Below, piece by piece: positions 4,948 to 18,244 of a DNA stretch of 64,000 nucleotides (the stretch's first letter is position 1; each line of letters starts with the position of its first letter). The notes beneath the pieces are model-generated. The model saw only the letters and a program-made list of their open reading frames with translations, ran no database searches and was not told the origin of the DNA. The DNA lies in assembly GCA_963773405.1 (NCBI GenBank), contig CAVZAQ010000007.1, forward strand, positions 118,224 to 182,223, given 5' to 3'. The DNA is from an uncultured Chloroflexia bacterium (GTDB lineage: Bacteria > Chloroflexota > Limnocylindria > QHBO01). The translations under genes and the position numbers were made by a program.

Positions 4948-6396
4948 ATGGATGCGCACACGCTGGCCGAACGTCCCGCGCTCTCTCCGCAGGCTGCCGG
5001 GGTAGCGGCGGACCTGCGCGAGCGGTTCGGCTTCCTCCGCGATGTGGTCGCCGAGATGGAGCGCAGCGTTCCGTATGCCTCCGCGCTCGTTCGCCTTGGC
5101 TCGGGGAGCAGCGTGAACCTCCGTGACGGCGAGCAGCAGGCCAATAAGCTCGACGCGCAGAGCGGCATCGTCCTCAGTGCGTCGACCGGCTACGAGCTCG
5201 AGGAGTCAGCCAGCGACGATCTCGATCCCGCATCCGTGCGCATGGCGGCGGCAGCGCTCGTCGAGCGCGTCAGCCGCGCATCGTCCGATGGTCTCCCACC
5301 CCTGGAGATCGTCCCGGACGGACCGCCCGACGCGGACTTCGCCACTGCGATGGAGATCGATCCAACGAGCGTGCCGCTCGGCGAGCGGATCGAGCGTTTC
5401 GACACCGTCCGCCGCCAGTTGCGCAACGCCGCGCCCCGGGCGGTCGAGGCCGTCGCCGTCCATCGCGAGAGCTCGCAGGTATCGGTCTTCGTCAACCGAA
5501 TGGGGCTCGCCACCCAGCAGGTGCGGCGTGCGGCCCTGGTGCTCCAGCTGTTCGTCTCGGACGGCTCGCAGCGCCAGTTCGACTATCTCAGCCGGGCCGG
5601 CACCGGCGGCCTCGAACACCTCGAGGTGACCGATGCCGAGCTCGCCGAGTGCGCCACGACCGCCGAGGCCCTCCTTGACGCGAAACCCGCGCCACCCGGC
5701 GAGCACGCGGTGGTCCTCGACCCACACACCAGCGGGATCGTGGCCCACGAGTCGTTCGGGCACGGGGTCGAGACCGACATGTTCCTCAAGGGCCGGGCTC
5801 GCGCCGCGGAGTACGTTGGGCGGCGTGTTGGCTCGGACGTGGTGACGATCATGGACGACCCCACCGTCCCGGGCGCCTACGGGTCGTACTTCATGGACGA
5901 CGAGGGTCAGCTCGCCACGCCCACCACCATCGTCCGAGACGGCATCTTCCAGCGCGGCATCAGCGACCTGTACTCGGCAACCCGCCTTGGAATCCCGCGA
6001 TCGGCGAACGGCCGCCGCGAGTCCGTCCAGCGCAAGGCGTATGCGCGGATGTCGAACACGTTCATCGCGCCCGGCGATCGCACGCCCGAAGAGCTCATCG
6101 GCGAGCTCGATGATGGGCTCGTCATCCTCCAGCCGCTGAACGGCATGGAGGATCCGAAGGGCTGGGGCATCCAGATCTGGACGCACTATGCGAGGGAGAT
6201 CCGGCACGGCCGTCCCACCGGGGTGCTGTACTCGCCCATCGCGCTCACCGGCTACGTCCCCGACCTCCTCTCCGCGGTGACCGGCGCCTCGACCGGGATC
6301 AAGTTCAGCGCAGGCACCTGCGGCAAGGGATGGAAGGAGTTCGTCCCGGTGAGCTCGGGCGGCCCCTATCTGCGCACACGCTGCCGTATCGCGTGA
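4948..6396 (+). CDS. tldD: TldD-family metalloprotease
   Basis: 482-aa intact ORF with the HExxxH motif (VAHESFGHGVETD) and a C-terminal GxC...GG region (CGKGWKEFVPVSSGGP) typical of TldD. Confidence 0.9.
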   Translation: MDAHTLAERPALSPQAAGVAADLRERFGFLRDVVAEMERSVPYASALVRLGSGSSVNLRDGEQQANKLDAQSGIVLSASTGYELEESASDDLDPASVRMAAAALVERVSRASSDGLPPLEIVPDGPPDADFATAMEIDPTSVPLGERIERFDTVRRQLRNAAPRAVEAVAVHRESSQVSVFVNRMGLATQQVRRAALVLQLFVSDGSQRQFDYLSRAGTGGLEHLEVTDAELAECATTAEALLDAKPAPPGEHAVVLDPHTSGIVAHESFGHGVETDMFLKGRARAAEYVGRRVGSDVVTIMDDPTVPGAYGSYFMDDEGQLATPTTIVRDGIFQRGISDLYSATRLGIPRSANGRRESVQRKAYARMSNTFIAPGDRTPEELIGELDDGLVILQPLNGMEDPKGWGIQIWTHYAREIRHGRPTGVLYSPIALTGYVPDLLSAVTGASTGIKFSAGTCGKGWKEFVPVSSGGPYLRTRCRIA

Positions 6397-7752
6397 TGAC
6401 CATGGACCGCCGCATCCTCGACGCCCTCGAGCGCCACCCCGACGTCACGGACTGGACCGTCCGGCGCCAGCACGCGGCTGGCGCCCAGGTGTACGTCACG
6501 GCCGGCACCCTCGAATCTGTCAGGCGGGTGGGTCGCGAGGCGTACGCGGTCGACGTGTACTGCGACCACCAGGTGGATGGCGAGCTGATGCGAGGCTCGG
6601 TGACCATCCCGGTGGGTCGCGACGAGCTCGCCGGATTCGATCACGCGCTCGCCGAGGCTGTGGTCATGGCCGGCCTCATCGACAACCGGCCGTGGCCGCT
6701 TCCCGAGCCCTGGCCCATCCCGGGGTGACCCTCGCCGATCCAGTGCTGCGGAGCCCGGAGGACGCCATGGCGTCCGCGCGTGCGGCGGTGGACCTGATCC
6801 AGGACCGCTGCAGTGGCGATCAGCAGATCCGGCTCAGCGCCGCAGAGCTGTTCCTCAGCGCCGTCGACGAGGAGATCGTCAACAGCCGCGGCCTGCGCGC
6901 CGAGGGACGTTCGACGAGCGCGCTCCTCGAGCTGGTCCTCCTTGCGCAGGGCGATGGCGAAGAGGTCGAGTTCTTCCGGCACGCCGAGGCGCGTCGGCTC
7001 GAGGACCTTCGCCTCGGCCGAGCTCGTCTCCGACGGCACGCGTCTCGTCCGTGACGCGGCCCGCGCGCGGATCCCCGACGTAGCCGGGTCGGCCCGGTCG
7101 TGGTCAGCGACATGGCCCTCGACCAGCTCCTGGGGCCGGACGTGATCGGCGACACGGGCGCCATCCTGATCCAGGCCGGGGCCGCGGCGGCATATGCCGG
7201 GCTGTCCCGGTGGGAGCTGGGCGAATCGGTGTTCTGGGGCAGGGAGCCGACCGGCGATCCGCTGCACCGTCCGGTCGAACGCGCGTCGCGCCTTTGGTGT
7301 CCTGGCCTACGAGTTCGACGAGGACGGCGTGCCCGGCCCAGGACCTGGCCGTGATCGAGGACGGCATCCTGCGCGCCCGCCCGGCGCCACGCAGCGCTAT
7401 GCCCACTACCTGGACCTGCCCGCCACGGGACGCCCCGGCGTCCCGGAGATCGCCCCCGGCCCGACCTCGTTCGCCGACCTCCTCGCGGGAGACGGGGCGG
7501 TCATCCACGTCGTCGCCTTCTCCTCGGCAAACGTCGAGGACCTCACCGGCAGACTTCGGGATGGAGATCCGCGTCGGATACGAGGTCGGGCCGGCAGGGA
7601 CCGTCCCGATCAAGGGCGGCTCCGTGACCGGGAATCTGTTCGAGGCACTCGCCGCCGCGCGGTTCTCGTCCGAGACGGGCGAGGACTCCGGATACGCCGG
7701 CCCGCGCGCCATCCGGTTCGAGGGGCTGCAGGTCACGGGCGCCGACGGCTGA
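6393..7752 (+). pseudogene. pmbA: PmbA/TldE-family partner of TldD, multiple frame changes as assembled
   Basis: The start overlaps the tldD stop (GTGATG). Protein-like segments run through at least four ORF-track frames (6330..6728, 6692..7054, 7100..7354, 7194..7997, 7210..7752) and end ...AIRFEGLQVTGADG. The order of segments is colinear with TldE-type proteins. Confidence 0.7.
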
Positions 7753-9164: not shown

Positions 9165-10159
9165 CGGGTTGCCTCCTGGCTCTCGGCCCGGTAGGCCCGG
9201 CCGGTGTGTCGAAGATAGACGTCGTCGAGCGAAGGACGGGCGACGGTGACCGATGCCACGCCCAGGCCCGGCGGCATCGAGGGCACTGAGCACCGTGGGG
9301 ACGGCCGATCGCGCCGTGCTCGGCCCGGGCGCGCAGCGTCCGGCCGTCCGCCATCGGCTCGCTCAGCCCGCGAACGCCGGCAAGGACGCGCGGTGGCGTC
9401 GCCGTTGCGGGCGGGCTCGCGGAGCTCGACGACGATCGCGTCGCCGTGGAGCTCCGCCTTGAGCTCCTCGGGCGTCCCGGTGGCCACGATCCGGCCCTGG
9501 TCCACGATCGCCAGGCGCCGGGCAAGGCGATCGGCTTCCTCGAGGTAGTGGGTGGTCAGCAGGATGGAGAGCCCGTCCTCGCGGGTCAGGCGCCCGATCT
9601 CCGCCCACAGCTCGGCGCGCGCCTCCGGGTCCAGACCGGTGGTGGGCTCATCGAGGAACAGCACGCTGGGCCGATGGACCAGGCCCATCGCCACGTCGAG
9701 CTTGCGCTGCATGCCGCCGGAGTAGGTCCGCACGATGCGGTCTGCCGCCTCGTGCAGGGCGAAGCGGTCGAGAAGCTCATCGATTCGGCGGGCGAGCTCG
9801 CGGCCGCCCATGCCATACACGCGTCCATGGAGGACCATGTTCTCCCGCCCGGTGGCCTCCACGTCGATGGCCGGCTTCTGGCTGACGGTGCCGATGACGC
9901 GCCGCACCCGGTCGGGCTCGCGCAGGACGTCGAAGCCGGCGACATGGGCCGTCCCCGAGTCGGGACGCGACAGGGTGGTGAGGATCTTGACGGTCGTCGA
10001 CTTCCCCGCGCCGTTGGGTCCCAGGAGGCCGAAGATGGTGCCCGGCTCGACGCTGATGCTCAGGCCGTCGAGCGCGCGAACGCCGCCGGGATAGGTCTTG
10101 ACCAGGTCGTGCGCCTCGATGGCCGGCGCGCCGGCCGCGGCACCTGGCTGGTTGGTCAT
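9161..10159 (-). CDS. ABC transporter ATP-binding protein (DrrA-like); C-terminal segment passes through two other frames and returns
   Basis: Walker A GPNGAGKST, signature YSGGMQRKL and Walker [13 protein letters not shown] are present. GAAGGAA lies upstream of the ATG. Between about 9250 and 9420 the homologous sequence is readable only by switching frames three times (net zero). Confidence 0.85.
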   Translation of the reverse strand: MTNQPGAAAGAPAIEAHDLVKTYPGGVRALDGLSISVEPGTIFGLLGPNGAGKSTTVKILTTLSRPDSGTAHVAGFDVLREPDRVRRVIGTVSQKPAIDVEATGRENMVLHGRVYGMGGRELARRIDELLDRFALHEAADRIVRTYSGGMQRKLDVAMGLVHRPSVLFLDEPTTGLDPEARAELWAEIGRLTREDGLSILLTTHYLEEADRLARRLAIVDQGRIVATGTPEELKAELHGDAIVVELREPARNGDATARPCRRSRAERADGGRPDAARPGRARRDRPSPRCSVPSMPPGLGVASVTVARPSLDDVYLRHTGRAYRAESQEATR

Positions 10160-10284: not shown

Positions 10285-11424
10285 ATGTCAAGCACCGATG
10301 ACGCCACACGCCTGGCGGCGCTCCTGTCGCGGACCCTGGACGCCCACGCGGTCGTCCTCTACGAGGCCGTTGCCGAGCGCCTGGGCCTCAACGCCACCGA
10401 TCTCCTGGGCCTGCAGCTGATCGCCGGCGAGGGCGAGACCACCCCGGGTCGGCTGGCGGAGCTGGCAGGCATCACCACCGGGGCCATCACCGGGGTGCTG
10501 GACCGGCTCGAGAAGGCTCGGATCGTGGTGCGCGAGGCCGATCCCGACGACCGGCGCCGTGTGGTCGTGCGCCTCTCCCCCACCCGGCTGGCCGAGCTGA
10601 TCGCCGTGCTGGAGCCGATGGCGGCCTCGGCCGACTCGCTGCTCGCGGGTTACAAGCCCGCCGAGCGGGCGGCGATCACCGACTACCTGGGCAAGGCGGC
10701 CGCCGCGGCCTCCGAGGCGACGGTGCGCCTGCGGGCCAGCACCCGCGGTGGCTTCGTCAACGACACGTACTCTGCACCGCTGGGCGGCGCGACCCGCGGG
10801 CGCCTGGTATTCGTCACCGGCGGGCCACGCCTGTCGATGAACGTCGCACCATTCGGTCCGGGCGCCAGCGCGCGGATCATCGTGGAGCCGTCCGCCTCGC
10901 GCCTGTCTTTCGAGGGGGCAGCGGACGAGGGGCAGCTCCTCAGCGCCCACTTCACCGGGCCTTTGCCGGACTGCCGGGTCGCGGACGGCGTCGTCACCAT
11001 CCGCTACCGGCGCTCCCCGTTTTCCAGCCGCCGTGCGCGGGTGCGCCTCAACGGCTCCATTCCCTGGACGGTCGAGATCTCCGGCGGCGTCACCGACCTG
11101 ACCGGCGACATCGGCGTACCGCTGTCGGCCCTGGAGGTGTCGGGCGGTGCGAACCACATCAAGCTGGACCTTCCGGCGCCGGTCGGGACCGCCGGGGTGC
11201 GCGTCACCGGCGTGGTGTCGATCGCGGCGCTGACGCGGCCGCCGAGCGCTCCGGTTCACCTGCTTGTGGGCGGCGGTGTCAGCCACCTGCGCCTCGACGA
11301 GGTCACGGCACGCCAGGTCAGCGGCCGCCGCCAATACGAGTCGGGCGACTACGCCGGCACCCCGGACCGCTACGACATCGAGATCACTGGCGGCGCCTCC
11401 GACGTCCGCATCGTCCCCCGCTGA
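10285..11424 (+). CDS. MarR-family HTH regulator fused to a C-terminal beta-rich repeat domain (DUF4097/LiaG-like by pattern)
   Basis: The N-terminal ~150 aa are MarR-like (LGLNATDLLGLQLIA...PGRLAELAGITTGAITGVLDRLEKARIVVREADPDDRRRVVV). The C-terminal ~220 aa carry repeated xSGGxxxhxhD strands (ISGGVTDLTGDI, VSGGANHIKLDL, VGGGVSHLRLD, ITGGASDVRIV). Confidence 0.75.
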   Translation: MSSTDDATRLAALLSRTLDAHAVVLYEAVAERLGLNATDLLGLQLIAGEGETTPGRLAELAGITTGAITGVLDRLEKARIVVREADPDDRRRVVVRLSPTRLAELIAVLEPMAASADSLLAGYKPAERAAITDYLGKAAAAASEATVRLRASTRGGFVNDTYSAPLGGATRGRLVFVTGGPRLSMNVAPFGPGASARIIVEPSASRLSFEGAADEGQLLSAHFTGPLPDCRVADGVVTIRYRRSPFSSRRARVRLNGSIPWTVEISGGVTDLTGDIGVPLSALEVSGGANHIKLDLPAPVGTAGVRVTGVVSIAALTRPPSAPVHLLVGGGVSHLRLDEVTARQVSGRRQYESGDYAGTPDRYDIEITGGASDVRIVPR

Positions 11425-11460
11425 CCCTTCCTGACGCAGCCGCTCCGTCGCGCCACCCGC

Positions 11461-11607
11461 GACTCGTCAGGCGCTGATGTCACGCGCGTTATCGGCTCCA
11501 ACCTCCCACCGACTCGTCAGACGCTGATGTCCGTAGCGTTAGGTGAGTCAGGGCCCGTCATGTGCCGCTGAGTTCGGCAGCACGGTGGCCCATCTGCCGT
11601 ATAAATC
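11461..11607 (+). repeat. family-A repeat, copy 1: two 33-nt direct units plus a conserved core
   Basis: Unit 1 (11461-11492) is GACTCGTCAGGCGCTGATGTCACGCGCGTTAT. Unit 2 (11511-11543) is GACTCGTCAGACGCTGATGTCCGTAGCGTTAGG. The core is ...CCCGTCA-TGTGCCGC-TGAGTTCGGCAGCACGGTGGCC...CCGTATAAATC. It matches 17590-17734 in inverted orientation and 19314-19520. Confidence 0.65.
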
Positions 11608-11702
11608 AGGACTATCGAGCCAGTAGTCGAGGAGCCAGCAGGGCGCGACAGTCTGCTCAAGGGGCAATGGCTTGGAGCCATTGCGGATCTTGAGGCAGGA
11701 CG

Positions 11703-13445
11703 ATGTCGCGCGGCAGGGGGAGACCACGGATTCACGAAGCGCCGGGGTGTCCCAATCGGCTGCACGAGAAGTCGCACGTCGTGGCGATCGGGTTCCTCCG
11801 AGGCCGCGAGAGCGGAAGCCGGGTCGTGCGCCGCTGGCGCTGCTATCCGCTAACCGGCAGCCACCACGACTTCGCGCTGGTCGTCTCTGACGACATGCCG
11901 CTGACCGTTCCGCAACCCAATCCGCCGTGCCCGTTGCACCCTGACAGCCGCGTGAAGCGGAATGGGGCCTATGGCGCGGGCCGGGTTCACCGCCAGCGCT
12001 ACCGATGCCACCCGCCAGGCGGCAAGTCGCACGTCTTCACGCCGCCGCTGCCGCGCGGCTACGTCAGTCCCGAGGACGGTCCCTGCCCCCACTGCGGCGA
12101 GCTGCGGGGCGTCCACCACGGCGACCATGCCGCCGCCCGCAAGCACACCGCCACCGTGGCGATGATCGCGCAGGGGCTTGACAAGCTGTCGGCCGGCGAG
12201 CCCTACGCCCAGGTCGGGCTGTGGGCCTGGAAGCAGATGGACCGCGACCCGGCGGTACCGGCCCGGTCTTCGCCGCCGCCCAAGGAGCCCGAGCGGGTCT
12301 GGAACGAGGAGACCCAGGCCTACGAGGATCGCGAACCGGCCAAGCCCAAGCCGGTCAGCCTTGGCTCGCTCGACAGCCGCGCCGCCTGGCGAGTTGCGGC
12401 CAACTGGATCGAGGCCTTCGCGCCGGTCATCTCGGATCCGATCGACGCTGACCTGCGAGCGAGGGCTCTCGCCGAGCGGGCCCGCATCGATGCGGACCTC
12501 GCCGCCGGCCGTCCCCTCGAGTGTCCCCAGATCCTGGTCCTCGACGACGTGCCGGTCTGGTCCAAGGCCCAGCAGCGCCGCCGCCGCGAGGGCGGCTTCG
12601 TCCTGCTCATCGTCGGCGAGGTGGCCTGGGAGCAGCCGGCGCGCCCGCGCGAGGGCCAGCAACAGTGGGAGCCACGGCTCCGCCTGCGCCTGGTGCGCGC
12701 CATGCCCAAGAGCAACCTGGCAGCCTGGCGACTGACCTTCGACGAACTCGGCTACGCGCCCGACTTCGTGGTCGCGGACGGTGGGACCGGCATCGCTGCC
12801 GGGGTGACCTCCCATTTCGATCCGCAGCGCACCGTGTTCGTGCCGTCGCTGTGGCACGTGCGCAACTCGGTCCTGCGCGCGGTCGGCATGGAGGCCGCGT
12901 CCAACCTCACGCCGCCGATTGCCGAGCACGCCCGCCACCTGGCCCGCGGGGATGCGATCCTCGAGTCGGCCGGAGCCTGGAACGACTGGTGGGACCAGCT
13001 TGAGCAGATCGCCCTGGCCGAGGGCCTGTCGCGCGACAAGGTCCGCAACCAGCGGCGCAACTACCAGGACGCTCTCGCCAACGTCATTCCGCACCTCGCT
13101 GCCAACCCCGGCCTGCGCCTATCGATCGGCGGCCTGGAGACCAAGATCCGCGAGCGCGTGGATCGGGTCCTGACCCTGCGCACCCAGTTCGCCAACATCG
13201 AGCGCACCAATCACCTCTTCGACCTGGTGGTGGCCCGCGAGCACGGGGCCTTCACCCACTCCCACGAGGTCGAGGCGTTGCTGCGCGCGGACGCCGAGGG
13301 CCGTGTCGGCCCCGACGGGCGGTCCGGCCACGCCGTCAGCCTGCGGACCATCGACGACCCGCAGCCCGACTCCGGGCCGCGCTACCGGTCGCTGCGCGAC
13401 CCGAGCCTGATCGCGTCCCTCGCCGAGAGTCGGGGCCTGGCATGA
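11703..13445 (+). CDS. zinc-ribbon-containing DDE-transposase-like protein (distant IS256/Mutator/ISL3-type by motif pattern)
   Basis: 580-aa intact ORF. The N-terminus has two degenerate IS1/IS1595-style ribbons (CPNRLH...RRWRCYPLTGSHHDF and CPLHPDSRVKRNG...RQRYRCHPPGGKSHVF) plus CPHCGELRGVHHGDH. The remainder has ILVLDDVPVW, DFVVADGGTGIAAGV, SLWHVRNSV and FANIERTNHLF, spaced like D, D, H..RN and E of RNase-H-fold transposases. Confidence 0.55.
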   Translation: MSRGRGRPRIHEAPGCPNRLHEKSHVVAIGFLRGRESGSRVVRRWRCYPLTGSHHDFALVVSDDMPLTVPQPNPPCPLHPDSRVKRNGAYGAGRVHRQRYRCHPPGGKSHVFTPPLPRGYVSPEDGPCPHCGELRGVHHGDHAAARKHTATVAMIAQGLDKLSAGEPYAQVGLWAWKQMDRDPAVPARSSPPPKEPERVWNEETQAYEDREPAKPKPVSLGSLDSRAAWRVAANWIEAFAPVISDPIDADLRARALAERARIDADLAAGRPLECPQILVLDDVPVWSKAQQRRRREGGFVLLIVGEVAWEQPARPREGQQQWEPRLRLRLVRAMPKSNLAAWRLTFDELGYAPDFVVADGGTGIAAGVTSHFDPQRTVFVPSLWHVRNSVLRAVGMEAASNLTPPIAEHARHLARGDAILESAGAWNDWWDQLEQIALAEGLSRDKVRNQRRNYQDALANVIPHLAANPGLRLSIGGLETKIRERVDRVLTLRTQFANIERTNHLFDLVVAREHGAFTHSHEVEALLRADAEGRVGPDGRSGHAVSLRTIDDPQPDSGPRYRSLRDPSLIASLAESRGLA

Positions 13446-15079
13446 GCGCCATCAGCCGGGCCCGGCTGTGGGCCAAGGCCCGCTTCCTCGTCTTCGATGT
13501 GGAGACGACCCGCCCACCCGAGCGCGGAGCCCCGCTGCGCATCGTGTCGATCGCCGGGATCAGCGTCCGCAACGGGCAGGTCGTCGGGCGCTTCGTCACC
13601 GACTACGTGAACCCCGGCTGCCCGATCGACGAGAAGTCGCAGAAGATCCACAAGATCAGCGATGCCCTGGTGGCGGGTGCGGCGACCTTCGCCGCCATCG
13701 CCAAGCCGCTCATGACCCTGCTGCATCCGGACCTGTCTGAGCGGACGTTCTTCGTCGCTCACAACGTCTCGTTCGACGCACCGGTCCTCCGCAACGAGCT
13801 GGATCGGGTCGGCGAGAGGATGCCCGAACTGCCGGTGCTCGACACCATGGCCCTGATGTCGGTGGCAGGCGTCAGTGGCGAGGGCGGACGCCGCAGCCTC
13901 AAGGCGCTGTGCTCGACCCTCGGCATCGACCTGTCGCGGCACCACCTGGCGGCCTCCTTCGACGCCGAGGCCACTGCGCAGGCGCTCATCGAGCTGCTCA
14001 ACCGGGCGGCCGACCAGGGGCACGACGACCTCGATGCGCTCCTCGACCTGCTCGGCGCTCACACGACCCGCTCGCTCACGTTCATTGGGCGCTTCGCGGA
14101 TGCCGAAGCGCCGCTGGAGCCGGAGATCAGCGCCGAGCACATCGCGACCCACGCCACGATCCTGCCGCGCCGGCCCGGCAAGCGGGTCCTCGCCGGCTGG
14201 CTGGCTGACACGGAGAAGTGCTCCGGTCTCCTGTGCGGCGGGCTCGTCGCCCGGGTAGCCGTGGCGGAGATGCCACCTGCCGATCTGCTCAGCCACCTCC
14301 TTCCACGTCTCCGTGCGCTTGCCACCACGGCTCCCGCCGCCCAGGTGGCCACCTACCTCGAGGCGATGCTGCCCCTGCTGCCCCACCTGCCGCCGGCCAG
14401 CCGCGGTCGTCCGGCCTTCGCCCGGCGCACCGCGGCGCTGGCCCTGGAGACCGATCTCGGCCGGCTCCTGGATCCACTTGGCCGCTGCACCGGCCCGACC
14501 TCCTGTCCGGCCTGCCGGCGCGGCGATCCCTGTCCGCTCGATGTCTGGCGCTTGGCGCTGGCCGAGCTGCTCATCGGCTCGGGTTCCGGCCGCAAGGGTC
14601 GGCGCACCGGCTTCGTCAGCGTCGGTCCCGGCCGCCTGGAAGGTGCCTACGCCTCGCTGGTTCGCGGCCGCCATCACCACATCGCGGACCTCGCCTTGCG
14701 GCTCGTCCACCGCCAGTGGATCTCGGTCGGCCAGCGTGACCGGGCCGGTCAGCTTGTGCGCGAGGCGCTGGCGGCCGGCTGTGCCGACCCGGAGATCATC
14801 GGCACCCACGCCGCGCACATCGGCCGGCGAGGGACGCCCGAGGCGCTGGCCGAGGCCATCGCCATCTGCGATGCGGCTCTCGAGCACCGCGATGGCAGCA
14901 CCGACGAGGCGTGGAGCGCGCTCGAGGCGCGCCGCTCACAGCTGCGCAGTCGTGCCGCGCGCTTCCGGGTCCGCTACGAGGACGAGCGCGACGAGGAGGG
15001 CAACCTAGTGCCGAAGCGTCTCCACCACCCGGCCGCACCGCTCCGCCGCCCACCTCGCTTCCAGCCCCGCGCTGCCTGA
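13442..15079 (+). CDS. DEDDh (DnaQ/epsilon-like) 3'-5' exonuclease domain protein with a ~350-aa uncharacterised C-terminal region
   Basis: 545-aa intact ORF whose ATG overlaps the upstream stop (ATGA at 13442-13445). ExoI is FLVFDVETT, ExoII is FVAHNVSFDAPVL and ExoIII is HHLAASFDAEATAQAL. The C-terminal part is Ala/Leu/Arg-rich with CTGPTSCPACRRGDPC and has no recognised family. Confidence 0.8.
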   Translation: MSAISRARLWAKARFLVFDVETTRPPERGAPLRIVSIAGISVRNGQVVGRFVTDYVNPGCPIDEKSQKIHKISDALVAGAATFAAIAKPLMTLLHPDLSERTFFVAHNVSFDAPVLRNELDRVGERMPELPVLDTMALMSVAGVSGEGGRRSLKALCSTLGIDLSRHHLAASFDAEATAQALIELLNRAADQGHDDLDALLDLLGAHTTRSLTFIGRFADAEAPLEPEISAEHIATHATILPRRPGKRVLAGWLADTEKCSGLLCGGLVARVAVAEMPPADLLSHLLPRLRALATTAPAAQVATYLEAMLPLLPHLPPASRGRPAFARRTAALALETDLGRLLDPLGRCTGPTSCPACRRGDPCPLDVWRLALAELLIGSGSGRKGRRTGFVSVGPGRLEGAYASLVRGRHHHIADLALRLVHRQWISVGQRDRAGQLVREALAAGCADPEIIGTHAAHIGRRGTPEALAEAIAICDAALEHRDGSTDEAWSALEARRSQLRSRAARFRVRYEDERDEEGNLVPKRLHHPAAPLRRPPRFQPRAA

Positions 15080-15115
15080 GGCACAGCCTCTACTTCTTTC
15101 GCGACGAAGCACGAG

Positions 15116-16844
15116 CTACTTGGCGGAGGCCTCACCTATCCAGACATTCGCCCCATCCGTGGTGGGCTCGAGGAGCAGGACGCCGCCAGGCAAGAGCACA
15201 CCCTGGTTGCCGGGGCTCTCTCCCGTGATGGCGAGCCTGTTCCAGCGCTGGCCGTCAAAGGATTCCCACGCCCCACCACCGAACTGCACGGCGAGGATCC
15301 TGGTCCCATCACTCACGAGCATGCCGTCCGCTCCTCGGCCCACCGGGGCTTGCGAAACGCCCAGCGGCGCGTAGTTGGGCACCAGGCGCCAGCGCTGGCC
15401 GTCGTTCGACTGCCACCAGACCTCTGCACCCGGGGCGGCAAACAGGCTGCCGTGGGCAATCCAGCCCTCCGGGCCGACGAGGAGGCCATCGGCACCCCAC
15501 GGCAGGCCCTGGGCATCGGGATCGGGCAGGGCCACGCTGGTCCAGTGCAGCCCATCAGGCGACGTCAGTGCGACTCCGGTCAGCGCGTCAGGTGACTCGG
15601 CGGAAGGCACCGCGCCCACTGCCAGATACCCGGTTGCGCTGCCCGTCAGTCCACCCAGCGCGAAGCCACCGGGCAAGGCAGTAGTCGGGCAGTGCGGTCC
15701 AGGTGATGCCATCGGTCGAGATCGCCGCGACCGCTGCGCGCCAGGACGCCGAGGCGATGACGCCGGCGGGGCCGGAGGCGAGTATCGGTCGCTCGTTTGA
15801 CTGGAGGCCGGCCTGAGCGATGACCGCGGGACCCGGATGGGCGGCCCAGGTCCGCCCGTCGCTCGAGGTCCACGACTGTGCAGGCACCGTGGTCAGGCCG
15901 TCCGCCCAGCCGGCGCCGGTGAGGGCCACGAGGCCGCCGCCGGGTAGCTCGGTGATGTCGAAGACGATCGTGCCCGAGCCGAAGACCGATGGGTCGAGCG
16001 CGGTCCAGGTGATCCCATCCGGCGAGGTCCAGACCGGGGTCCAGCTCGTGTCGCCGGCGGCCTGGTCCTGGCCGAGAGCGATGAAACCACCCGACCAGCG
16101 GATGACCTTGCGGACCTGGGCCAGCGGATCATTGACGGCCAGCTTGCGCCAGGTCAGGCCGGTCCAGGTGGCGTCGGGTTCCGTCGGGGCGTTGGTCGTG
16201 AAGCCGTCGAGCGCGGGCACCGCGGACGGAGTCGGGCTGCCGCTCGGCGCGGGCTCAGGTGCCTCGATCGACATGCTCTGCCGATAGCCGGCCGCGATGA
16301 AGTAGGTCTGGTTGCCGGCGACCACCAGGAGCGCGCGGTCGAACGAGGGCGGGATGGTGGCCGATGGGTCGGGCGGGGGCGGCGGTCCTTTCGGAATCTC
16401 GCCGTCGATGTAGCAGACCCAGGCCGGATCGCTATCGGCATACCTGGCCACCTGCGGGTTGTCCTTGACCGCAGTCATGTTCCGCACGATGCCGACTGTC
16501 GTCTGAAACGCACCGGCCACCGTGCCGTTGTAGTCGCGGGCAAGCGGGCTGCACGGCGTCTCGCCTGGGCTGCCCGAAGCGCTGGGACTGGGACCGACCG
16601 GGATCGGTGCCGGTGGCAGCAGGCCGATGAGGACCGCGACCAGCAGGGCGGCGGCCACCACGGCTGCCGCGCCGACGCTGGGCAGGATCCAGCTGGCCGA
16701 CAGTCGCGCCGTCCAGGCACGCCGCTGCGGGATGTGGCGGACGCCGGACATGCCCCGGGCGAGCAAGTCGGGCGGCGCTTCCCCGGAGCCCTCCGCGTGG
16801 AGGTAGGCGCGCACCTCGGTCTCGAAGCGGGCCTGCTCGTTCAT
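15116..16844 (-). pseudogene. membrane-anchored anti-sigma-like protein with extracytoplasmic Asp-box (BNR-like) repeats, one frame change near 15700
   Basis: The start overlaps the sigma gene stop (ATGA). It has a single TM (ILPSVGAAAVVAAALLVAVLIGLL). Six SxDGxxW repeats are split over ORFs 15588..16844 and 15116..15712 (TSPDGITWT, SSDGRTWA, STDGITWT | TSPDGLHWT, SNDGQRWR, SFDGQRWN). Confidence 0.7.
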
Positions 16845-17401
16845 GCCGCACCTCCCTCGGGCGCCAGGCGCCCATCGGCCTCGAGCGCAGCGCGCAGGGC
16901 GGCCTCGGCGCGCGACAGGCGCGACTTGGCGGTCCCCAGCCGCAGGCCGAGCGTCTCGGCCACCTCGGGCACTGAGCTGCCCAGGTAGTAGCGCAGGACG
17001 ATGACCGCGCGATGCTCGGCGCTCAGGGTGGTGAAGGCGCGGTTCAGCGACTCGCGCTCGACGACCGCCACCGAGGCGTCCGCCGTGGCCAGCGCGTCGG
17101 GCTCCAGCTCCTGCTCGGCGCGGGCATGCCGCGAGCGGCGGGCGAGGTTCAGGCAGGCGTTCGTCAGGACCCGCCGCAGCCAGGCCTCGAAGCGCTCCGG
17201 GTCGCGCAGCCCCGGCAGGTCGCGCCAGGCGTTGATCATCGTCTCCTGCACGGCGTCCTCCGCCAGCACCGGATCGTGGAGGATGAGCCTGGCGGTGGCA
17301 TACAGGCGATCGAGCCGGGCGGCGATCAGGTCCTCGAAGGCCGTCTCGTCGCCGGCGCGCGCCCGGATCACCAGATCACGCTCCAACTTGGGTTCCCCCA
17401 C
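16841..17401 (-). CDS. ECF (group 4) sigma-70 factor
   Basis: 186-aa intact ORF. Region 2 is AEDAVQETMINAWRDL...FEAWLRRVLTNACLNLAR and region 4 is AVIVLRYYLGSSVPEVAETLGLRLGTAKSRLSRA. Confidence 0.9.
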   Translation of the reverse strand: MGEPKLERDLVIRARAGDETAFEDLIAARLDRLYATARLILHDPVLAEDAVQETMINAWRDLPGLRDPERFEAWLRRVLTNACLNLARRSRHARAEQELEPDALATADASVAVVERESLNRAFTTLSAEHRAVIVLRYYLGSSVPEVAETLGLRLGTAKSRLSRAEAALRAALEADGRLAPEGGAA

Positions 17402-17589
17402 TCCTTCCTACTGGCATAGGCACCGCGGAAGCCCGTTTCGTTCCATCGCCTGTCTCGAATGTCGAGTAGAACCCCGGTCGGCGCAAGGGGCCAGGCGGCC
17501 TGTTGCAGGGAGATGCTCGGCCACCAGCGACACGGGCGGGCGAAGCGGCAGACGGAGAGCGGGCCGCTGGCCGATCCGGAATCGCCCGG

Positions 17590-17734
17590 GATTTATACGG
17601 AATCAGGCCATCGTGCTGCCGAACTCATGTGCCGCTGACGGGGTCGCGGCCGAGCGTGGCAGGGCACGGTTGGGGCGCCATCGGGCTGACTGAACCTGCC
17701 TAACGCTGCTGTGGTCCGCAGGTGACAAGTCAGG
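17590..17734 (-). repeat. family-A repeat, copy 2 (inverted relative to copy 1)
   Basis: GATTTATACGG...CATCGTGCTGCCGAACTCATGTGCCGCTGACGGGG...CCTAACGCTGCTGTGGTCCGCAGGTGACAAGTCAGG. The reverse complement aligns to 11511-11607 with a ~45-nt insertion. Confidence 0.65.
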
Positions 17735-17770: not shown

Positions 17771-18244
17771 TCAGACCGGGACCCGGAGGTGAATCGGCTG
17801 GCGGACCTGCACGTCGGTATGGCCGTTCCGAGACGCCGAGATGACGATCGTGTCGACAACGGCGTCCGAATGGATCTCACTGTACCGCACGGTCACTTCG
17901 GCCTGGTGTGAGATCAGCTCCAGGCGCTCGATGATCGGGTACGGACAGTGACGGTGCCGGCAGTAGTCCAGCGGATCGGTTCGTGCGACGGTCACCTCAC
18001 GCATCTCCATCGGCAGCGAAGACCTGACGTGCGGCGCCTCGGCGAACAGCACGGCCAGGGCACGGGACGCGTCGTCGTGGCATCGAAACGGGTCGACGCC
18101 CTCGCAGGCCAGCGGCAGGCTGGAAGGCAGGACCTCCAGGTGGTTGGCCCAGCTCCAGGTTGCCGCACCGATGGCGACCACGACGACGGCAGCGGCAGCC
18201 AACGCCAGCAATCGCCGACGAGCGAGTCTCACTGGCGTGGACAT
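17771..18244 (-). CDS. hypothetical membrane-anchored Cys-rich protein
   Basis: MSTPVRLARRRLLALAAAAVVVVAIG... provides an N-terminal anchor. The extracytoplasmic part has six Cys (PLACEGVDPFRCHDD, DYCRHRHCPYP). It overlaps the end of anti-sigma 2 and is probably the third gene of that operon. Confidence 0.6.
   Translation of the reverse strand: MSTPVRLARRRLLALAAAAVVVVAIGAATWSWANHLEVLPSSLPLACEGVDPFRCHDDASRALAVLFAEAPHVRSSLPMEMREVTVARTDPLDYCRHRHCPYPIIERLELISHQAEVTVRYSEIHSDAVVDTIVISASRNGHTDVQVRQPIHLRVPV

Follow-up and report, generated by a model that had tools for sequence, protein, structure and literature searches.

The 64,000-nucleotide stretch of DNA analysed here (the window), part of contig CAVZAQ010000007.1 of an uncultured Chloroflexia bacterium, very probably contains an autonomous DNA transposon that belongs to an undescribed family, as judged by comparison with related loci. 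The element, located at positions 11569–17627 (6.06 kb), encloses a pair of coupled open reading frames (ORFs) plus cargo genes. ORF1 (11703–13445, plus strand, 580 aa) and ORF2 (13442–15079, plus strand, 545 aa) both start with ATG; the former codes for a putative DDE transposase and the latter for a DEDDh exonuclease with a predicted all-helical tail. A first-pass annotation, made from the sequence alone, had reported two long intact ORFs of these sizes joined by an ATGA overlap, and both the overlap (13442–13445) and the unbroken frames are indeed present. The identity of the element as a transposon is well supported, and a role of ORF2 in transposition is what we infer in addition.

The element is bounded by imperfect terminal inverted repeats (TIRs) of about 38 nt with the tip TGAGTTCGGCAGCAC. 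The left TIR (TGAGTTCGGCAGCACGGTGGCCCATCTGCCGTATAAATC; 11569–11607, plus strand) matches the consensus of the family, and its tip is nearly invariant in relatives. The right TIR (TGAGTTCGGCAGCACGATGGCCTGATTCCGTATAAATC; 17590–17627) is read inward on the minus strand and also matches the consensus. Immediately outside the TIRs are the two identical copies of an 8-bp target-site duplication, TGTGCCGC, located at 11561–11568 (read directly) and at 17628–17635. Alignment of the two ends extends over about 38 nt and takes in the common subterminal sequence CCGTATAAATC, and the subterminal A/T box (TATAAAT/TAAAA) of the left end is present in the right end too. A repeat search over positions 10800–16000 revealed only chance-level inverted pairs near the ORFs. 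The right end, 2.5 kb past ORF2, was found only after a consensus had been obtained from related loci. Systematic search of these loci gave the family TIR consensus TGAGTTCGGCAGCAAGGTGTGAT, and in most of them the TIR site is located 60–130 bp upstream of ORF1 and 0.8–2.8 kb downstream of ORF2. The window contains two matches to this consensus, at 11569–11587 (plus strand) and 17609–17627 (minus strand), against 0.01 expected by chance. The first-pass annotation, which had treated the gene pair (11703–15079) as the possible mobile unit, was right about the presence of an element but set its extent too small, the real unit being 11569–17627.

Two readings of the pair had been offered in that annotation, a new kind of mobile element and a domesticated transposase working with a nuclease, and the related loci speak for the first. 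A pair domesticated for defence or DNA-end processing would be immobile and its repeats relics; in favour of this count the single copy in the window, the sparseness of the family (35 loci in 185,579 species genomes scanned), the restriction-modification system carried by one element and the annotation of the family as hypothetical everywhere. It is nevertheless highly improbable in view of the intact TIRs and of the perfect 8-bp duplications, which flank 16 of the 19 elements with both ends found (the window and 15 others). The same tip occurs at no fewer than 17 loci, whose ORF1 products are 30–74% identical to that of the window, and TGAGTTCGGCA hardly varies among the tips of 17 left ends. 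In one relative (L029) a 40-nt inverted repeat of 95% identity surrounds ORF1, ORF2 and about 0.9 kb more. The closest relative (L037, ORF1 74% identical) is a metagenome contig of 4,527 bp that breaks exactly at the two tips and thus provides an independent mark of the same element boundaries. Contexts differ even between close relatives: pairwise DNA comparison showed that L003 and L005 have only a 3.4-kb core in common (84.5% identity), while the sequence common to L025 and L031 begins at a sharp left boundary. Flanks are unrelated among the 37 loci compared, with no conserved host-gene neighbourhood, one metagenome-assembled genome (MAG) among the genomes scanned carries three copies, and recent-looking insertions are found beside other elements. 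In the window itself the element has inserted without disrupting a gene: its neighbours converge on it, a MarR-domain gene that stops at 11424 on one side and an ORF that stops at 17771 on the other.

The two coupled genes form the constant part of the element. In 33 of 36 loci the ORF1 homologue is directly followed by an ORF2 homologue that has both exonuclease domain and tail; the other three loci are fragments. In the reverse look-up an ORF1-like gene was present upstream of the ORF2 homologue in all three contigs, each time with a 4-bp overlap, so that the co-occurrence on which the first-pass annotation had made its proposal depend was observed in both directions. All-against-all clustering of the ORFs of the 37 loci identified ORF1 and ORF2 as the sole common gene families and revealed no third conserved gene. 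The dN/dS values of 0.25 for ORF1 and 0.26–0.31 for ORF2 (two independent pairs) indicate purifying selection on both.

The family is mainly actinobacterial. At least 178 ORF1 homologues are present in a protein collection clustered at 90% identity, all of them unnamed or “hypothetical,” and those with named sources come from actinobacteria (Nocardioides, Phycicoccus, Geodermatophilus, and Blastococcus). An exhaustive profile search with ORF1 yielded 773 clusters at 50% identity (E ≤ 1e-3), and a search of plasmids gave no match. Nearly all of the 35 loci in the scanned species genomes belong to Actinomycetota, with hosts from Acidimicrobiia, Ilumatobacteraceae, Geodermatophilaceae, Cellulomonadaceae, Nitriliruptoraceae, and Micromonosporaceae. 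Some members are split across frames or fragmentary, including ORF1 of L008, L010, L018, and L021 and ORF2 of L008, L019, and L023, as well as L024, L033, and L036; these may be either decaying copies or MAG assembly errors.

From its conserved residues and predicted structure, ORF1 is interpreted as a putative DDE-type transposase of a new family. In an alignment of 53 family members its zinc-binding residues are invariant or near-invariant (C47/H55, C76/H79/C102/H110, and C128/C131/H138) and make up two tandem CHCH ribbons and a CCHH cluster. Equally conserved are the acidic residues D281 (LLDDVPV), D354 and D359 (PDFVVADAGTGI), as well as W384 and H385 (SLWH), G476, G477 and E479 (STGGLET), and N498, E500, R501, T502 and N503 (NIERTN). 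The AlphaFold model (pLDDT 82.8, pTM 0.72) comprises two N-terminal three-stranded ribbons (residues 25–62 and 83–112), a helix-turn-helix (HTH) motif (152–178), a 48-residue helix (220–267), and a region (277–393) with the secondary structure order of an RNase H fold: beta (277–287), beta (294–310), beta (323–334), alpha, beta (355–358), alpha, beta (378–381), alpha. This core is followed by a helical insertion and by helices starting at residues 478 and 499. In the model D281 lies within the first beta strand and D359 right after the fourth. The catalytic triad is likely formed by D281, D359, and E479, with D354 in place of D359 and, less likely, E500 in place of E479 as alternative candidates. 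In six homologues (L014, L017, L019, L023, L025, and L031) an extra N-terminal copy of the zinc ribbon was noticed; positions ~5–72 of the profile match twice in them, and the number of ribbons within the family is thus two to three.

The first-pass annotation fared well on the architecture of this protein. The zinc motifs that it quoted are present, conserved in the family and modelled as two ribbons, and the RNase H-like core that it expected has the corresponding topology in the predicted structure. Its labelling of the ribbons as IS1/IS1595-type finds no counterpart in any model match: the IS1/IS1595 zinc-ribbon and DDE models do not match ORF1, and a single one of the 53 members matches Zn_ribbon_InsA, with an E-value of 0.2. 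In the proposed order D, D, H, E, the first three residues (D281, D359, H385) are in register with the IS256 and ISL3 motifs in statistically weak profile alignments, while the glutamate is more likely E479 than E500 of the NIERTN motif. As for the established insertion sequence (IS) families, none of their models matches ORF1. Searches of Pfam and NCBIfam (both at E ≤ 1), PHROGs, and PADLOC gave no match, nor did a Pfam scan of the 53 members at E ≤ 5 reveal any transposase. Comparison of the ORF1 profile with PDB sequences returned only RbsD, a match judged to be spurious. The weak top matches in Foldseek are all proteins with RNase H folds, namely RuvC, the PIWI domain of Argonaute, TnsB, RAG1, and HIV RNase H.

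Profile comparison suggests a probable, though remote, relationship of ORF1 to the IS256/ISL3/Mutator group. Alignments of real IS256- and ISL3-family transposases from annotated plasmids were compared with ORF1 using hhalign. The score against IS256 was 31.7 (P 0.005, probability 7.6%), above all 32 controls, with 17–19 for the reversed profiles and at most 25.6 for the 30 block shuffles. Nearly global in extent, the alignment places R86-N-G88 opposite RNG, D281 opposite D167, W342 opposite W212, D359 opposite D233, H385 opposite H257, and E479 opposite E341. The spacing of the putative triad is similar (D281-78-D359-120-E479 in ORF1 and D167-66-D233-108-E341 in IS256), and the RNG motif, the conserved tryptophan, the histidine after the fifth beta strand and the T-x-x-[IL]-E motif are all in register. 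IS256 (Pfam PF00872, Transposase_mut; prokaryotic relatives of Mutator/MULE) also resembles the element in having TIRs of tens of base pairs and target duplications of 8–9 bp. However, IS256 consists of a single transposase ORF of ~400 aa without an accessory gene, whereas the element has the 580-aa ORF1, about 190 aa longer and with two or three zinc ribbons and a CCHH cluster absent in IS256, an obligatory second gene, cargo, and other TIR tips. No match of ORF1 to PF00872 or to the NCBIfam IS256 model was obtained at E ≤ 1, or at E ≤ 5 for the 53 members.

The ISL3 family is similar to the element in its 8-bp duplication and in the order of N-terminal zinc ribbon, HTH, and DDE core. In a profile alignment that does not outscore the block shuffles, D281, D359, H385, and E479 align to the ISL3 invariants D155, D210, H234, and E366, the D..FH-like motif (SLWH in ORF1) and the SxGxxE motif are aligned as well, and the zinc ribbon aligns to zf-ISL3. 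Unlike the element, ISL3 has a single transposase gene and no exonuclease, and neither the Pfam models DDE_Tnp_ISL3 and zf-ISL3 nor the NCBIfam ISL3 models match ORF1. As a calibration, IS256 and ISL3 recognize each other with a probability of 95.6%, so that the distance of ORF1 from either family is far greater than that between the two.

The absence of a significant transposase model or structure match to ORF1 could also mean that this protein is not the recombinase, and that the ends are moved in trans by an unlinked enzyme or the chemistry is performed by ORF2, with ORF1 acting as a DNA-binding specificity or regulatory factor. ORF2 contains the sole confidently assigned nuclease domain, and the DEDDh domain itself has an RNase H-like fold. 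Such a division of labour is scarcely credible, given that the invariant acidic residues of ORF1 occupy canonical positions on the predicted RNase H scaffold and are in register with the catalytic residues of IS256 and ISL3, that there is no third conserved gene, and that DEDDh exonucleases are not known to catalyze strand transfer.

The N-terminal part of ORF2, by its sequence and predicted fold, is a genuine member of the DEDDh (DnaQ-like) 3'-5' exonuclease superfamily. Residues 12–200 match Pfam RNase_T (PF00929) with an E-value of 2.9e-21 and 77.1 bits, against a cut-off of 24. Residues D19, E21, D112, H168, and D174 are invariant in an alignment of ORF2 homologues, which is shallow (10 sequences) because the word-indexed expansion of the family was saturated by generic DEDDh proteins. 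All the catalytic residues noticed in the first-pass annotation are therefore in place and invariant, while the spacing of the ExoIII motif was misread: it is H168-x5-D174 in the ORF2 of the window, and H-x4-D in other members. In the structural model (pLDDT 83) the epsilon-like domain leads into a tail, at residues ~230–510, that is helical throughout. All Foldseek matches run through the exonuclease domain and include epsilon (TM 0.82), DinG, TREX2, and ExoI, and the profile matches to PDB sequences, from epsilon (E 8e-21) to Cas2-DEDDh, are confined to it as well. The exonuclease-domain models of epsilon, DinG, and PolC in NCBIfam match far below their equivalog cut-offs, and the PHROG “DNA polymerase exonuclease subunit” also matches. 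The fold and all catalytic motifs of residues 12–200 are thus those of Pol III epsilon (DnaQ) and of the DinG and PolC domains, but ORF2, unlike these proteins, has no helicase, polymerase or GIY-YIG partner and carries a unique tail of 350 aa. Assignment as the replicative Pol III epsilon subunit was rejected, since the score against the equivalog is 68.7 bits with a cut-off of 196 and the protein has 545 aa with an unrelated tail, as compared to ~240 aa with an alpha-binding peptide at the C terminus in DnaQ proper. PADLOC models for the CRISPR-associated DEDDh protein and for the defence candidate PDC-S48 match over the exonuclease domain only, and ORF2 was not accepted as PDC-S48 because only profile positions 4–174 of 411 are aligned.

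The tail of ORF2 matches no family in Pfam, NCBIfam, PHROGs or PADLOC and no solved structure. Its cysteines C260, C265, and C349-x5-C355-x2-C358-x5-C364 are invariant among the 10 sequences, so the C-x5-C-x2-C-x5-C cluster that the first-pass annotation could place in no family is real and stays without one; a motif RRHHP..RPPRF is conserved at the C terminus. The spacing of the cluster appears similar to that in the iron-sulfur (Fe-S) binding motifs of WhiB proteins, AddB/Cas4, and endonuclease III/MutY. A metal-binding or Fe-S domain in the tail is probable.

In transposition, the zinc ribbons and HTH motif of ORF1 would bind the ends of the element, which ORF1 would then synapse, with its long helix (220–267) mediating multimerisation. 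The RNase H-like DDE core would cut the 3' ends and join them to the target with an 8-bp stagger. Translational coupling would provide ORF2 in a fixed ratio with ORF1. ORF2 would degrade DNA in the 3'-5' direction as an active exonuclease, and its helical tail, by binding metal, would form the part that docks on ORF1 or on DNA. It would most likely process 3'-ended DNA of the transposition intermediate, either trimming flanking donor DNA or flaps at the tips or degrading the donor. Such a function would make it a core accessory factor rather than cargo.

Alternatively, all DNA chemistry could be performed by ORF1, with ORF2 being a conserved selfish or host-interaction module and not a transposition factor. 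In this capacity it might repair the donor gap, blunt host defence or the SOS response, regulate transposition or select the target. Most DDE transposons need no exonuclease, the tail of ORF2 has no recognisable link to any transposition protein, and PDC-S48 and the CRISPR-associated DEDDh model are among the matches of its exonuclease domain. These PADLOC matches, however, span just the generic domain, and no reasonably complete element lacks ORF2, even where ORF1 identity falls to 30%, whereas cargo turns over freely. ORF2 is often translationally coupled to ORF1, and its selective constraint equals that of ORF1. A module of this kind is rather unlikely.

In agreement with the first-pass annotation, which knew of no IS or transposon family with a coupled exonuclease, literature searches turned up no prokaryotic transposon described as carrying a DEDDh accessory gene, although this is not proof of absence. 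The only precedent found for a transposon-encoded DEDDh exonuclease, compared here by its description, is that of the KolobokD DNA transposons of animals, TIR-bounded DDE elements in which a DEDDh (DnaQ-like) exonuclease is a lineage-specific accessory (PMC9587614). Its authors proposed that the exonuclease degrades the 3' ends of transposition intermediates (PMC9587614). Unlike the element described here, KolobokD is eukaryotic, encodes a TREX/ERI1-like rather than an epsilon/DinG-like exonuclease, and has a transposase of another superfamily; it also lacks the Cys-rich helical tail and the operon-style coupling. A second comparison is offered by the Cas2-DEDDh “trimmer-integrase” of type I-E CRISPR adaptation (PDB 8fy9–8fyd), where a DEDDh domain physically coupled to an integrase trims 3' overhangs and so makes integration precise. 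The exonuclease domain of ORF2 matches the Cas2-DEDDh chains with E-values of 7e-8 to 2e-7. The analogy is mechanistic only, as the integrase in that system is Cas1 and not a DDE enzyme, and the exonuclease is fused to Cas2.

Carried further, this analogy with Cas1 and Cas2-DEDDh leads to a “trimmer-transposase,” in which ORF2 would be the catalytic partner and ORF1, bound at the ends, would serve as both the ruler and the strand-transfer enzyme. ORF2 would resect flanking DNA up to the protected TGAGTTCGGCA tip, making or maturing the reactive 3'-OH, and its tail would possibly sense DNA via an Fe-S cluster. This arrangement is distinctly unlikely; if true, it would represent a type of end processing undescribed for prokaryotic DDE transposons and a new two-protein transposase family.

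Several observations weigh against the interpretation as an autonomous transposon driven by ORF1 and ORF2. The case is one of sequence comparison throughout, and there is a single copy in the 64-kb window. Matching duplications are lacking in L004, L018, and L027 (3 of 19 elements), and frameshifts in several relatives point to decay of a part of the family. ORF1 has no family match in Pfam or NCBIfam and no structure match in Foldseek searches of PDB and BFVD at E ≤ 1e-3. Its hhalign probabilities are only 4–8%, and the score against ISL3 (26.6, P 0.024) is within the range of the block shuffles. The choice of the D, D, and E residues is based on profile alignment and model topology, and their spatial clustering is presumed. 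The participation of ORF2 in transposition is deduced, and this protein could serve the element in another way.

The family prefers certain target sites, among them the tip of a resident element. In most cases the duplication is preceded by TCA and followed by TGA, so that the preferred target is TCA-N8-TGA, which mirrors the tips of the element. The tips of two different elements abut with exactly 8 bp between them in L005, L008, L012, L031, and L068. The abutting ends are found at ~5892 in L005, 5893 in L008, 5895 in L012, and 5701 in L031, with the second end located 8 bp from the left tip. A scan of metagenomes for abutting tips, with spacers of 0–14 bp allowed, revealed an 8-bp spacer in 10 of 11 cases (L055–L065). 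Sequence arrangement of this kind points to targeted insertion beside resident ends. An origin as circle junctions or tandem dimers was ruled out since the two ends differ beyond the tip, which identifies them as neighbouring insertions. The partner elements in L005, L008, L012, and L031 have no ORF1 or ORF2 within 6 kb. In L068 the partner, located exactly 8 bp past the right end of a 9.7-kb element, is a 67-bp element (9847–9913) made of two inverted ends only (TGAGTTCGGCAGTCAGAG...CTCTGACCGCCGAACTCG), which looks like a miniature inverted-repeat transposable element derived from this transposon family. Its end type, TGAGTTCGGCAGTCAG, recurs as an abutting partner in L055, L056, and L059.

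The region between ORF2 and the right TIR contains cargo that differs among elements and is mostly encoded on the opposite strand. In the window three ORFs are located there, all on the minus strand: an extracytoplasmic function (ECF)-type sigma-70 factor of 186 aa (16841–17401; Pfam Sigma70_r2 2.5e-15, Sigma70_r4_2 7e-12), an ORF of 418 aa (15588–16844) that overlaps the stop codon of the sigma factor gene and codes for a membrane-spanning, anti-sigma-like protein whose N-terminal part is cytoplasmic and precedes a hydrophobic segment, and an ORF of 198 aa without a family match (15116–15712). A cargo set of the same ECF sigma type is present in L069, with a sigma factor 62% identical to that of the window and an equivalent of the 418-aa ORF that has a weak N-terminal match (29%). 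The 418-aa and 198-aa ORFs overlap by 125 nt (15588–15712) in different frames, and both contain repeats of the “DG.xWT” type. Either a single longer gene with a frameshift or a wrongly assigned start of the second ORF could account for this overlap. The true start of the 198-aa ORF may lie further in, since it overlaps the 3' end of the 418-aa ORF, while the latter may be complete, given that its equivalent in L069 has 428 aa. The A/T box in each end may act as an inward -10-like promoter, the left one for ORF1 and ORF2 and the right one for cargo; inward promoters in both ends would explain why the cargo points inward from the right end.

Cargo of other elements includes a CDF efflux pump with an ArsR regulator (L001), a TPR protein (L005), a CarboxypepD_reg protein with a lipoprotein-like N terminus (L007), a zinc alcohol dehydrogenase (L018), and a DUF7555 protein (L037). 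The 9.7-kb element of L068 (94–9838), flanked by the duplication CCGCCGCC, carries a complete type I restriction-modification system (HsdM, HsdS, HsdR) between ORF2 and the right TIR. The cargo region of L004 contains, at 5008–6467, ORFs like IS3-type orfA/orfB (...RRFPAAYKARILAEYE...), which look like another IS nested in the transposon; L004 is also one of the elements without a matching duplication.

DDE transposons as a type are known, and what is new here is the transposase family and its obligatory exonuclease partner. The catalogue of prokaryotic IS and transposon families is generally considered nearly complete. The family described here escapes the transposase models of Pfam, NCBIfam, and PHROGs; it is consequently annotated as hypothetical and invisible to mobilome surveys, which concerns the mobilome of Actinomycetota, especially of Acidimicrobiia and Geodermatophilaceae. 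The combination of a DDE-type enzyme with a proofreading-type exonuclease could reveal new end processing or a link between transposition and replication or repair. The elements carry regulators, metal-resistance genes, and type I restriction-modification and may be vehicles of horizontal transfer in soil and aquatic actinobacteria. With its defined ends, strict 8-bp duplication, TCA-N8-TGA preference, and two-gene machinery, the transposon is a potential genetic tool for high-GC bacteria.

Several minor features were noticed in and around the element. An integrative element was considered and rejected, as the window contains no tRNA and shows no GC shift, and an Rfam scan across the element gave only sub-threshold chance matches. 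Left ends of the family align over the first ~40 nt only and not beyond the TIR, which speaks against a conserved structure in the 5' untranslated region of ORF1. Inside the element, 15–40 nt upstream of the ORF1 start, a hairpin GGGGCAATGGCT-TGG-AGCCATTGCGG is located at 11660–11687, and a different short hairpin (GGCGA...TCGCC) occupies the same place in L037. The intergenic DNA that separates the MarR-domain gene from the left end contains, just outside the latter, a direct repeat of 32 nt in two copies (CGACTCGTCAGGCGCTGATGTCACGCGCGTTA at 11460–11491 and CGACTCGTCAGACGCTGATGTCCGTAGCGTTA at 11510–11541) that are 84% identical and lie 50 nt apart; an operator is conceivable, as is the remnant of some other feature.

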